Shown piece after piece: positions 38,256 through 42,216 of a stretch of 64,000 nucleotides of DNA. A program made the translations under genes and the position numbers. Origin of the DNA: Peptostreptococcaceae bacterium (GTDB lineage Bacteria > Bacillota > Clostridia > Peptostreptococcales > Filifactoraceae); NCBI GenBank assembly GCA_030528675.1, contig JAUMYL010000017.1, positions 6,860 through 70,859 on the forward strand, given 5' to 3'. The notes below the pieces were generated by a model. That model saw nothing but the letters and a program-made list of their open reading frames with translations, was not told where the DNA came from and did not search any database. Position 1 is the first letter of the stretch; the number at the start of each line of letters is the position of its first letter.

Positions 38256-40301
38256 ATGCAGGAAGATGCGGCAAGAGAAAGGATCGGAAAACTGACCGAA
38301 GAGCTGGAGTACCACAGCAGGAAGTACTATCTTGAGGATGCTCCGGAGATCAGCGATGCCCGGTTCGATGAGAAGATGCGGGAGCTGATCGAGCTGGAAA
38401 ACTCTTTCCCCCAGTTCCGTTCCCAGGATTCTCCTTCTCAGAGGGTCGGAGGCGGAGTGCTCGGAAAGTTTGAGGCGGTGAGGCATCAGGTGCCTCTGAT
38501 GTCGCTTTCCAATGCTTTTTCCGAAGGGGATCTGAGGGATTTCGACCGCAGAGTCAGAGAGATCGCTCCCGGGGCGTCGTATATTGTCGAGCTCAAGATT
38601 GACGGCCTGTCCGTCGCTCTCACTTACCGCGGGGGGCGCTTCGTCAGCGGAGCGACCCGGGGAGACGGCGTGCAGGGTGAAGATATCACGCAGAATCTCC
38701 GCACCGTCAGGACGATACCACTCAAGCTCTCGGAGGAGATCGACATCACGGTAAGAGGTGAAGTCTTCATCCCTAAGGATCGGTTCGAGCAGCTCAACCG
38801 TCAGCAGGAGGAAGCGGGACAGCCTCTCTTTGCGAATCCGAGAAATGCGGCGGCGGGCTCCCTGCGTCAGCTGGACTCGTCCATCACGGCAAAGAGGCCG
38901 CTGGATATCTTCGTCTTCAACCTGCAAAAGACGGAAAATGAGGCTGTAAAAACTCATCAGCAGGCGCTGGAATACATGGAGCGCCTCGGTTTCAAGGTCA
39001 GCCCTCAGTACAGAAGATGCAGGGATATCGGCGAAGTCTGGCAGGAGATCCTCTCCTGGCAGGAAAAACGCCATCGGCTGGATTTCGAGATCGACGGCAT
39101 CGTCGTCAAGGTCGATGATTTTGCCCAGAGAGAGCTTCTGGGTACGACGGCGAAGGCGCCGCGCTGGGCGGTCGCCTATAAGTTTCCGGCGGAGAGGAAG
39201 CAAACCCGGATCGAGGATATCCTCATTCAGGTGGGCAGGACGGGAACACTGACGCCGACGGCTGTGCTGACTCCCGTGCGTATCGCGGGCTCGACGGTCT
39301 CCCGCGCCACCCTCCACAATGAGGATTATATAAGGGAAAAGGACATTCGTCTCGGAGATCGGGTGCTGATACAGAAGGCGGGAGATATCATTCCGGAGGT
39401 CTGTGAAGTCCTGAGCGAGAGCAGGGACGGAAGCGAGAGGATCTTTGAGATGCCCGCCTGCTGTCCGGTATGCGGCAGTCCCACCGTCCGCATCGAGGGA
39501 GAGGCGGCGGTCAAATGTCCGAATATCAGTTGTCCCGCTCAGATCAAGCGGGGGATCGAGCATTTCGTCTCCAAGGGAGCCATGGATATCGACAAGCTCG
39601 GAGAATCTCTCGTCGCCCGCTTTTTTGATGAAGGATTGATTCGGGACATTGCGGATATCTACTCCTTAGATCCGGAGGAGCTCATGCGTCTGCCGAGACT
39701 CGGCGAACGATCGGTCGCAAACCTGATGCGCTCCATCGAAGCTTCCAAGGATCGTCCTCTTGACCGGCTGATCTTCGGTCTGGGCATCCCCTATATCGGC
39801 GCCAAGGGAGCGAAGATTCTTGCGGCGCGCTACCGAAGCATACGGGAGCTCAGCTCCGCAAAGGCGGAGGAACTCATGAGCCTGGAAGAGGTCGGAACCA
39901 AGATGGCACAGAGCATCGTCGAATTCTTTGCCCTGCCGAGCAACAGAGATCTCTTGGATCGTCTCGCGGCGGCCGGGCTGCGTATGGAGACTGCGGAAAG
40001 TCCGGAAAAACGGGAAGAGCCCATCTTCGAGGGATTGAAATTCGTCCTGACCGGGACTCTGCCGACGCTGAAGAGAGCGCAGGCGGGGGAGATGATCGAG
40101 AGCAGGGGAGGAAAACTCTCTTCTTCGGTCAGCAGGGCGACGGACTGTGTGCTCGCCGGAGAAGAGGCGGGATCAAAGCTGGAAAAGGCACAGGCTCTTC
40201 AGATCCCGATCATCGGAGAGGAGGAGTTTTTTGCCCTGCTCAAAATGGAACAGGTGCAGGAGGTCCGAGAAGCCCTGAAAGGAAAGACGGGTCATGCCTG
40301 A
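38256..40301 (+). CDS. ligA: NAD-dependent DNA ligase
   Basis: 681 aa. Adenylation KxDG ([10 protein letters not shown]). OB fold, Zn finger ([10 protein letters not shown]...C), HhH and BRCT. Confidence 0.96.
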
Positions 40302-42216
40302 TCTCTATCCCGGCGGGCTGGACAGGCGAAAGCGAGCGGCTCTCGGCATGGTGTTTACCGAGAAGCTCCTGGCGGACTTCATCGTCGACCGGGCTTTGGC
40401 CCATCTGGACAAGGATTTTTTCAGCCTCTCCCCGAAAGTGGTCGAGCCTTCGGTCGGAGGAGGGGCTTTTTGTCTTGCTCTCCTTGAAAAAGCGAAAAAA
40501 GAGATTGAGAAGACGGATCGGAAGGAGAAGGAGAAACAGCGCCTGCTGACCTCCTTTGCCGAAGGGATGCGGGGGGTGGATGTGGAGAAAGCCGCCGCAA
40601 CGCTCGCCGTAGACAATCTGCGTCGGGCCGAAGCAAAGCTCGGACTTCAGGGCTTCGACTGGAAAAGCCGCATCCTCGTAAAAGATTTTCTCGGCACGGA
40701 GCGGTCGGATTTCGATGCGGAAAAAGGAGTATCCCTCATCATCGGAAATCCGCCCTATATCGGAGAAAAAGGCAGCAAAGAGCTTTTTCACAGGATGAGA
40801 GAGACGAAATTCGGCAGTCGTTTTTATGAAAAAGGCATGGATTATTTTTATTATTTTATAGAAAAAGGGCTGGAGCTTCTTGCCGAGGACGGGATCCTCG
40901 CGTATATCACCACTTCCTACTGGACGAGAGCGGACTCGGCCGGTAAGCTCAGGGAGTATATCCGCTCTCAGGCGGGGTTTGCCGAAGTGATTGATTTTCA
41001 GGATATTCGGCTCTTCGAGGACGCTCAGGGACACAACAGCCTCGTCTTCATCCTCAAAAAAGGCTATCGGGGAAGTTTTCTTCATTATAGAGTGCTCGCG
41101 GGAAAAAAGAAGCTGCAGGAGGTCTTTGAACAGATCCCCGCGGCGGAGAGAGAAATTCTCCGTCTGCAGAATCCCGGCGACCCGAAGTCTGAAAAAGGCC
41201 AAGAGGGAAGCCGGGACGTCCTTGCGGGCGAAATTTCCGGGCAGATCGGCGGACTTGCCGCTCGGAAAGAAGGGCCGGCCGAAGCTTCTCTGTTTCAGAC
41301 CCTATGCTGCGACAACGAGACGACAACTCGTCTTACGCCCTATTTCATTTTTCTTCCGAGAGAGGAAGTCTCCTTCATCCGAAGGCTTCAGGAGCTTTCG
41401 GAGCGGAATCTCGACGCTCTCTGCTCGATCAATCAGGGAATCGTCAGCGGCGCGGACAGGGTGACGGGGCAGAATATCCGATTTCTTCCGAAAGAGCCGC
41501 TCCTTCGCGGGGAGATCCGCATCGGGGAGGGGATCTTCGTCCTCAGTCAGGAGGAAAAAGAGCGGCTCTGTGAGAGGCTCGGGAGCGAGAGGGAGGAGAT
41601 CGTACCCTTTTATAAGAGTTCGTCGGTACAGCCTTACAGGCTGCAAAAACACAGTCAGTATCTGATCTATCTCGAAGGGAGCGAGGGGGAGGATCATCCC
41701 CTGGTCCGGGAACATCTCAGCCGTTACAGAGCGCTGCTGGAGCGCCGCAGAGAAGCGGTGCGGGGAAAGATTCCCTACTATGCGCTGCACTGGAAAAGAA
41801 GACGCGGCATATTTACGGGTGAAAAGCTCCTCGTTCCTCAGCGGGCGTTGCGCCCGACCTTCGCTTACAGTGAAGAGCCCGTCTATGCCAGCGCCGACGT
41901 CTATTTCATCAATCAGATGCAAAAAGACCCTTTTTTTCTGCTGGCCTATCTCGGCAGCGGGATCGTAGAGCGCTACCTCCACTACCTCGGCAAGCGCAAG
42001 GGTAGCTATCATGAACTTTACAGCAAGCCCCTCGGCGAGATTCCGGTTCCTTCCCTCCCCTTCTGCGAGGAGGCGGCTCTGGCGGATCTTGCAAGATCCG
42101 TCCACTCTTCCTCCTGCCCGAAGGAAAGGAAGAGGTTGCTTTCGGAGATTGACGAGAGGCTTTGGCAGGTACTGAAATATTCACCGGGAATATCGAAGAA
42201 GGAGGGAAAGAATTGA
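40294..42216 (+). CDS. N6-adenine DNA methyltransferase, gamma-class (Eco57I/TaqI family) with TaqI-like C-terminal target-recognition domain; no nuclease domain
   Basis: 640 aa. Motif [15 protein letters not shown] precedes motif [15 protein letters not shown]-terminal 330 aa TRD. ATG overlaps the ligA stop by 8 nt. Confidence 0.8.

Follow-up and report, generated by a model that had tools for sequence, protein, structure and literature searches.

Why would a gene for an adenine DNA methyltransferase, with no restriction enzyme beside it, be lodged between a DNA ligase gene and a transporter gene in what looks like a bacterial housekeeping operon? The question arises from a stretch of 64,000 nucleotides (nt) of a Peptostreptococcaceae bacterium of the family Filifactoraceae (assembly GCA_030528675.1, contig JAUMYL010000017.1, positions 6,860 to 70,859 of the forward strand), hereafter the window, in which a gene for a protein of 640 amino acids (aa) directly follows ligA, the gene of the NAD-dependent DNA ligase. 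An identical protein is on record (P0001) from a metagenome-assembled genome labelled Peptostreptococcaceae bacterium. The locus is real and a first-pass annotation of the letters had read it essentially right; the kind of enzyme is already known, and its linkage to ligA is conserved. The explanation that we regard, taken as a whole, as quite probable is that of a solitary gamma-class N6-methyladenine (m6A) DNA methyltransferase with the architecture and fold of CamA from Clostridioides difficile, which would be active, resident next to ligA and responsible for a CAAAAA-type epigenetic mark. The gene would be a chromosomal resident in a lineage of Peptostreptococcales that resembles Filifactoraceae (Acetoanaerobium, Peptoclostridium and uncultured kin), where it has diverged together with ligA, and its expression would come from the tmk-aroA-ligA operon, probably through translational coupling. 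The recognition domain of the enzyme would read both grooves of an asymmetric CAAAAA-type site, whose last adenine would flip out into the NPPY pocket to receive a methyl group on one strand, and the resulting mark would be epigenetic and not a self-protection against a restriction enzyme.

The assignment of the protein to the gamma class, with an Eco57I/TaqI-family catalytic part and a TaqI-like recognition domain, was already present in the first-pass annotation and held up in every part. Pfam models Eco57I (PF07669, 78.5 bits for a gathering cut-off of 25.3) and TaqI_C (PF12950, 38.6 bits for a cut-off of 26.5, at aa 438-585) score above their thresholds, and the remaining Pfam match, MmeI_Mtase, is sub-threshold. 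Motif I does precede NPPY, as had been read, and the full succession of motif X, motif I, motif IV and C-terminal recognition domain is the gamma-class order (Table 1). Motif X begins at residue 18, therefore leaving no space for an N-terminal nuclease domain, which agrees with the earlier claim that there is none. The recognition domain itself had been correctly noticed, but its estimated size of roughly 330 aa was too large, since the proper domain spans about 255 aa (346-600) after a linker. All the catalytic and cofactor residues (T22, S53/G55/G57, D96, N152-P-P-Y155, F188, which is F200 in CamA, and F241, which is F253 in CamA) are present and do not vary within the family, and motif X carries TE instead of the usual TP. 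An AlphaFold2 model calculated from the alignment reached a predicted local distance difference test score (pLDDT) of 87.3 and a predicted template modelling score of 0.81, and its low-confidence parts are residues 298-329 and the last nine. The linker insertion is rich in glycine, glutamate and proline and is seen only in the window protein and in its nearest relative, L001. By its domain scores and motif order, the protein is thus a gamma-class N6-adenine DNA methyltransferase, with methyl transfer itself as a prediction.

Which characterised enzyme does it resemble most? The earlier reading had the family right and missed the closest characterised relative. As a single sequence, the protein finds its best match in the PDB in the 577-aa CamA of C. 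difficile (entries 7LNI/8CXZ, E 5e-30), and a profile of 29 homologues matches CamA residues 11-576 with an E-value of 2e-87, followed by M.BseCI (1e-35) and, far lower in the same search, by PglX, MmeI and M.TaqI. When the predicted structure was compared with the PDB by Foldseek, the top 33 matches were all CamA-DNA complexes (E ~5e-40, TM-scores 0.58-0.73), and M.BseCI came next, before MmeI, BpuSI, PglX and M.TaqI. CamA (CD2758, Cdi630V in REBASE, where its original label was 'IIG*') is an orphan m6A methyltransferase that promotes sporulation and whose target is the final A of CAAAAA. Both proteins consist of two domains without a nuclease, arranged in the gamma motif order and with a motif I of the SxGxG form, and both are orphan, chromosomal, inherited vertically and found in Peptostreptococcales. 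On the other hand, the camA locus has the composition Amidase_3/Rrf2-or-patatin/camA/patatin/ptsH/ptsI, whereas that of the window is ligA-methyltransferase-yeiH, and the window protein contains a disordered linker insertion and a 24-residue segment of the recognition domain that CamA lacks. The full-length collinear match, the best fold match and the absence of a nuclease domain place the window protein, as far as sequence and model comparisons can tell, in the CamA-like family in the broad sense. True orthology was considered and discarded in view of the 23% identity, the different locus and a CamA clade (100% bootstrap) that excludes the window clade; published CamA orthologues are 53-100% identical. 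A homologue search with CamA retrieved nothing but orthologues, in Clostridioides and Romboutsia at 60-100% identity, and in neither genus is ligA their neighbour. Those found throughout Romboutsia (L090, L091; P0121-P0240; 60-67%) lie in the Amidase_3/patatin/ptsH/ptsI neighbourhood of the C. difficile type, and given these sequences the published description of CamA as specific to C. difficile is too narrow.

The most informative comparison for the target concerns the DNA-contact residues of CamA, which were taken from PMC8187626 and transferred to the window protein through the family alignment. Among the 16 positions compared, eight are identical (CamA residues in brackets), namely K159 (K172), Q381 (Q346), R486 (R425), W500 (W439), R502 (R441), S533/A534 (S472/A473) and Y576 (Y521), and two are conservative, V384 (I349) and R517 (K456). 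The residues that read C1:G1, A2, A3 and T4 in CamA fall in the identical or conservative set (R486, W500, R502, Q381, V384, S533 and A534). The recognition domain holds the counterparts of the CamA base contacts, Q381, V384, R486, H499, W500, R502, Q516, R517, S533, A534, G570, H573 and Y576. Over 86 family members the contact positions are 91-98% conserved, and most of the residues that differ from CamA are the family consensus, with CamA as the outlier. M.BseCI, which has the same fold and recognises ATCGAT, carries other residues at every CamA base-contact position examined; being conserved in the family but replaced in an enzyme of the same fold, the contacts therefore track specificity, not fold. 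A further hint comes from M.Pat19335II of Psychrilyobacter atlanticus, which was assigned CAAAAA m6A with no cognate nuclease by Blow et al. and was aligned with CamA by Oliveira et al. A protein of the genus Psychrilyobacter (P0270), reached by a homologue search with an Ilyobacter protein and bearing the family-consensus contact residues, is probably the orthologue of M.Pat19335II. Altogether, the comparison points to a target of the CAAAAA type, possibly extended (e.g. CAAAAAR). The window contains 98 CAAAAA sites, with an observed/expected ratio of 1.07 under third- and fourth-order Markov models; the seeming excess over dinucleotide shuffles (98 vs 42 expected) was dismissed as an effect of A-tract composition, which is gone under the higher-order models. 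The count shows no avoidance and otherwise speaks neither for nor against the motif.

The location of the gene turned out to be an old one. A linkage survey, which combined context look-ups of relatives with a scan of species-representative genomes, found the methyltransferase directly 3′ of ligA at methyltransferase identities from 88% down to 31%: L001 (88%), L002/L003 (49%), L005/L006 and the cultured Acetoanaerobium noterae DSL2, L092 (38%), L007/L008/L011 (35%) and L009/L012/L013, which include Peptoclostridium litorale DSM 5388 (31%). The synteny in relatives that the first-pass annotation had proposed to check is thus conserved, and its description of the arrangement as unusual was too strong, since the ligA-methyltransferase order is the norm of the lineage and the gene is retained where LigA is just 57% identical. 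The distance from the ligA stop to the methyltransferase start is -8 nt in the window and in L001, -4 nt in L002, and from +24 to +119 nt in remoter relatives. Codons overlap in the closest relatives alone, which marks the overlap as a local refinement added to an operon linkage of greater age. Downstream of the methyltransferase, the neighbour varies among relatives, being either yeiH plus opp, opp alone or gatCAB. There is also a precedent in Escherichia coli, whose dam gene, coding for an orphan m6A methyltransferase, lies in the operon aroK-aroB-damX-dam-rpe-gph-trpS. Dam is an analogue and not a homologue: both genes sit in a housekeeping operon with aro genes, and the Dam mark is epigenetic and tied to replication, as that of the window enzyme could be, but Dam is an alpha-class enzyme that acts on the palindromic GATC through a hemimethylated intermediate, whereas in a CAAAAA-type site a single strand carries the methyl group. 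A literature search returned nothing on ligA-linked orphan methyltransferases or on Acetoanaerobium methylomes.

The two neighbouring genes also seem to have a common history. Pairwise identities of LigA and of the methyltransferase are correlated with r = 0.98 (nine loci, 36 pairs), which is the pattern of co-inheritance, the methyltransferase being the faster to evolve. In the comparison with L001, the methyltransferase gene as a whole has a ratio of non-synonymous to synonymous substitution rates (dN/dS) of 0.25, and ligA one of 0.08. Within the methyltransferase, the ratio is 0.19 in the catalytic and 0.16 in the recognition domain, both of which are under purifying selection, and reaches 0.46 in the linker (aa 266-345), where the constraint is relaxed. 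Bootstrapped neighbour-joining recovers the window subclade and the Peptoclostridium subclade at 100% each. The monophyly of all ligA-linked genes including L014, as drawn in a first tree, was abandoned after bootstrapping, which united the two subclades at 74% without L014 and joined L014 to CamA at 90%. Neither did the gene look mobile. A search of a viral collection found no relatives on viral contigs, and the only full-length match in a plasmid collection is L092 (NZ_CP154629.1), the 'plasmid pTPELB2' of A. noterae DSL2, a circle of 2.63 Mb. The G+C content of the methyltransferase gene (0.51-0.57) is the same as that of its flanks, and an origin from a mobile element was rejected on this account, together with the lack of viral or true plasmid relatives and the co-divergence with LigA. 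As to pTPELB2 itself, the replicon is chromosome-sized, and its genes include ligA, the methyltransferase gene and the opp operon.

The absence of a restriction gene nearby, as first noted, was confirmed by comparing the open reading frames of the 64-kb window with Pfam and PADLOC, which revealed no restriction endonuclease, no type IIG enzyme and no part of BREX or of another defence system. In eleven syntenic loci of relatives, too, the methyltransferase has neither a nuclease nor a defence partner for a neighbour. The remaining window genes include the secY/rpoA region, nrdAB, a liv transporter, feoB, a CCA-adding enzyme and an ABC-2 exporter, as well as opp, a cell-wall amidase, RNase PH/Ham1, a beta-CASP nuclease of the RNA-processing type, WYL regulators and RtcB. 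Two proteins that could have hidden a nuclease were discarded, the 533-aa product of a minus-strand gene (33145-34746) being a single-pass, low-complexity protein, and the 265-aa protein (36136-36933) a polytopic membrane protein. A BREX PglX was rejected as well (34.8 bits with the NCBIfam model for a cut-off of 500, and no brx genes nearby), and so was a fused type IIG/IIL enzyme, given that the window protein has no N-terminal extension. The orphan status of the gene holds within the 64-kb window and the eleven syntenic loci.

What else could this gene be? The most serious uncertainty affects the target: an orphan m6A methyltransferase with a sequence other than CAAAAA, different or longer, is an unlikely reading, but a contender of some weight. 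Several observations count against the preferred explanation, and some of them favour such a different motif. Six of the 16 contacts are changed, E158 (H171), G160 (K173), H499 (Q438), Q516 (Y455), G570 (S514) and H573 (I517), and two of these residues, H499 and H573, depart from the family consensus and are specific to the immediate lineage of the window. BLASTP identity to CamA is as low as the 23% mentioned above, over 584 columns, and the deep branches of the tree, among them the one that would relate the ligA-linked group (74%) to CamA, are weak. The 24-residue segment (aa 391-414) is kept in the window protein and in most family members, but the CamA clade has lost it and so has the Fusobacteriales clade, and a plain CAAAAA motif is documented for exactly these two and for no other group; the window enzyme could therefore have a motif that is not precisely CAAAAA. 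Under this reading, the segment and the residues H499, H573, E158 and G160 would jointly produce the different or longer target. Moreover, P0270 was matched at the genus level only and is not the P. atlanticus entry itself, and no family sequence compared had its own motif measured directly. Lone CAAAAAR/CRAAAAR m6A methyltransferases are widespread in Clostridium, Eubacterium and Acetobacterium, so such variants of the motif do occur in other Clostridia, and the segment may go with the extra purine of CAAAAAR. In favour of the CAAAAA type, however, the readers of C1:G1, A2, A3 and T4 are identical or conservative, and the same positions change in M.BseCI, the specificity of which is unrelated.

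The other explanations question the orphan status, the activity or the substrate of the enzyme. The gene could supply the modification function to a restriction-modification, type IIG-like or BREX-like system with its partners elsewhere in the genome, given that the view of the genome is limited to 64 kb, that the distant homologues of 950-1270 aa are fusions of the type IIG kind and that PADLOC matches it best with profiles for type II methyltransferases and type IIG enzymes. Such a system is nevertheless improbable: no partner was found in the window or in the eleven syntenic loci, the PglX score is far below its cut-off, the putative motif is not avoided, and the co-divergence with LigA and the fixed housekeeping position are unlike the patchy, mobile behaviour of defence genes. 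Of the two alternatives left by the first-pass annotation, the solitary epigenetic methyltransferase is thus favoured by the ligA linkage, the co-divergence, the purifying selection, the missing partner and the non-avoided CAAAAA, whereas the type IIG-like system with a lost nuclease survives as distant ancestry, seen in the long relatives with N-terminal extensions, and not otherwise. A decaying or catalytically dead relic within the ligA operon would explain why the gene evolves faster than its neighbours in the comparison with L001 (88% vs 94-98% aa identity, dN/dS 0.25 vs 0.05-0.20), as well as the disordered insertion and the TE of motif X; it is very improbable in the face of an intact frame of 640 codons, invariant catalytic and SAM-binding (S-adenosylmethionine) residues, purifying selection on both domains and a gene kept where LigA has diverged to 57% identity. 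Methylation of RNA, protein or another non-DNA substrate deserves slightly less credit still, for the weak NCBIfam and PDB matches to PrmC and METTL5-type enzymes, which share the NPPY fold, score far under their cut-offs, and the full-length collinear match to the DNA-bound CamA and M.BseCI extends to the recognition domain and its contacts.

The solitary CAAAAA-type methyltransferase, which we prefer, finds its place in a wider family with several known systems around it. Remote homologues (22-26% identity, 950-1270 aa) bear N-terminal extensions of the HSDR_N, MmeI_N-like or DUF7149/DUF7814 kinds, and the family therefore has a common ancestry with type IIG enzymes, the extension having been lost long ago in the window clade. 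MmeI, BpuSI, Eco57I and the PglX of BREX likewise combine an Eco57I-type catalytic domain with a TaqI_C-type recognition domain, but they are proteins of 900-1250 aa, either with a nuclease or helical domain at the N-terminus or working within a multi-gene system. M.BseCI is part of a restriction-modification pair with a palindromic site; it is the second-best match in both structure and sequence, collinear over the full length, with different base-contact residues. The CAAAAAR/CRAAAAR enzymes Awo_c14460, CP6013_1459 and CcaP7ORF7120P, likened by motif and not by sequence, modify the last A of a near-identical asymmetric motif, and most of them have no assigned nuclease, although CcaP7ORF7120P (1241 aa) is a fused restriction-modification enzyme according to REBASE. 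Relatives of medium length (717-770 aa) from Alkaliphilus, Geosporobacter, Acidaminobacter and others have a shared neighbourhood in at least 24 loci with no nuclease seen, which suggests that they are vertically inherited orphans too. That neighbourhood (L015-L055 and related loci) consists of genes for an AlaX-like protein, a metallo-beta-lactamase-fold hydrolase, a tetratricopeptide repeat protein, the S component of an energy-coupling factor (ECF) transporter and two proteins without Pfam match.

The Fusobacteriales methyltransferases of about 510 aa, together with M.Pat19335II, share with the window protein the signatures NPPY(I/F)GEK, MDYxYFF, QGIVSG, RRE..W.LQW.R and SADxY. Their contacts are those of the window protein except at three positions, where they have Q438, L517 and N173 in CamA numbering, and they also occur in housekeeping contexts. 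They differ in being shorter, in their identity of 27-32%, in the lack of the 24-residue segment, and in having polA 3-5 kb upstream instead of ligA immediately upstream. This position of polA was observed in seven Fusobacteriales loci (L057, L062, L072, L082, L086, L087 and L089) and likewise, 3-5 kb upstream, in a clade of Clostridia of the Tindallia/Anoxynatronum type (L032, L035, L039, L045 and L059). In Fusobacterium perfoetens (L086:5980-9564), the methyltransferase lies directly upstream of ligA with a gap of 3 nt, in the order scpA-murJ-methyltransferase-ligA-secA, a second ligA association with the reverse gene order and in another phylum. The nearest non-orthologue of CamA in the tree is L014, which sits upstream of gatCAB. 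The polA and ligA neighbourhoods, as well as the grouping of this gatCAB-linked gene with CamA at 90%, suggest an old chromosomal orphan lineage out of which CamA may have been relocated. A more ambitious and rather doubtful proposal would join all these pieces: the CAAAAA-type orphans of Peptostreptococcales and Fusobacteriales would belong to a single epigenetic system of ancient origin, passed on vertically and repeatedly wired to genes of lagging-strand maturation, with CamA as a relocated and fast-evolving offshoot and with a 24-residue segment that might read the extra purine of CAAAAAR. In such a system the mark would be placed on one strand without a hemimethylated intermediate, and the wiring would allow its renewal as replication proceeds.

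These relationships matter because CamA has been promoted as a C. difficile-specific target for anti-virulence drugs and as a rare core epigenetic regulator in Firmicutes. A sister lineage has a homologous and equally core-like orphan methyltransferase fixed in the ligA operon, with most of the DNA-reading residues conserved; orphan methyltransferases of the CamA type are thus not peculiar to C. difficile, and the wider family spans Clostridia and Fusobacteriales. If the CAAAAA-type specificity is true, CAAAAA(R) methylation would be a lineage-wide mark and not a peculiarity of C. difficile, and inhibitors of CamA might also hit commensals. The cultured carriers A. noterae DSL2 and P. litorale DSM 5388 would then offer simple systems for studying the role of the mark outside sporulation and pathogenesis.

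Within the window, the gene belongs to a same-strand cluster (Table 1) where the successive gaps from tmk to yeiH are 14, 10, -4, 33, -8 and -4 nt. With no gap longer than 33 nt, the cluster is operon-like, in agreement with the first description of the gene as part of a tmk-aroA-ligA housekeeping operon. The two overlaps then described, that of the methyltransferase ATG with the ligA stop and that of its own stop with the TTG start of a YeiH-type gene, are both there: the methyltransferase TGA (42214-42216) shares 4 nt with yeiH, which starts in frame at the TTG of 42213, and an independent gene call in L001 picked the same TTG start and the same overlap. Co-translation with ligA, which had been deduced from them, is another matter, because the overlapping codons show operon linkage and are compatible with translational coupling, but are no proof of it. 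A promoter and terminator scan gave no significant internal promoter signal and no convincing terminator inside the cluster (19 terminator-like sites vs 16.9 expected from shuffles).

Table 1. Features of the ligA-methyltransferase region, with positions in the window
Feature	Position	Strand	Basis and remarks
Methyltransferase gene, 640 aa, ATG start	40294..42216	+	Predicted CamA-like gamma-class N6-adenine DNA methyltransferase; list of open reading frames, Pfam, PDB and fold matches
ligA, NAD-dependent DNA ligase, 681 aa	38256..40301	+	Pfam DNA_ligase_aden, OB, ZBD, HHH_2, BRCT
ligA/methyltransferase overlap, 8 nt ATGCCTGA	40294..40301	+	Methyltransferase ATG plus ligA TGA
yeiH-family membrane protein, 342 aa, TTG start	42213..43241	+	PF03601, 237 bits; TIGR00698 below its cut-off
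Same-strand seven-gene cluster	34891..43241	+	tmk, 187-aa protein, 265-aa membrane protein, aroA, ligA, methyltransferase, yeiH
Motif X, GMVFT, aa 18-22	40345..40359	+	Translation; aligned with CamA GIYYT; T22 invariant
Motif I, SAM-binding loop, aa 50-59	40441..40470	+	SxGxG form as in CamA; aligned with CamA ILDISCGCGNF; S53, G55 and G57 conserved
Motif IV, NPPY, catalytic site, aa 152-155	40747..40758	+	Invariant in the 29-, 86- and 13-sequence alignments
Low-complexity linker, predicted disordered, aa 298-329	41185..41280	+	pLDDT <50; missing from P0004 and remoter relatives
Target-recognition domain, aa ~346-600	41329..42093	+	TaqI_C match; residue mapping; dN/dS 0.16
24-residue segment of the recognition domain, aa 391-414	41464..41535	+	Alignments; segment lengths per clade; pLDDT 88-93

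Some relatives depart from the direct adjacency. In L004, a block of ECF-transporter genes sits between ligA and the methyltransferase, and L010 (Acetoanaerobium pronyense) has ECF genes of the L004 type upstream of the methyltransferase, its ligA presumably lying just past the 6-kb flank examined. The genes of this wedge (L004:2751-6998 and L010:52-4005) encode CbiQ, a duplicated ABC ATPase, an S component and a DUF4430 protein. In L010, a pair formed by a resolvase and an OrfB/TnpB protein (Cas12f-like TNB), similar to the IS607 type, is inserted immediately upstream of the methyltransferase (L010:4122-5822). In L014, a gene for a DUF4430/SLH protein comes before the methyltransferase (L014:4110-5816), with gatCAB after it.

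A few other features of the region deserve mention. Between yeiH and the opp operon there is an intergenic stretch of 456 nt (43242-43697) with a low G+C content (~42%), which contains the best promoter-like match of the region (43618-43646); an Rfam scan of the 64-kb window, this stretch included, yielded no family at the gathering threshold. The 33-nt gap between aroA and ligA (38223-38255) corresponds in L001 to the insertion point of a two-gene candidate defence module (L001:3802-5873), made of an AAA_15/AAA_21 ATPase and a DUF4276 protein (PADLOC HEC-01A, 1.6e-36, and HEC-01B, 6e-5), which the window lacks. Finally, positions 57647-63155 of the plus strand harbour two adjacent WYL/WCX proteins, a Band_7/SPFH protein and an RtcB RNA ligase, a set that is reminiscent of regulated RNA-repair modules.

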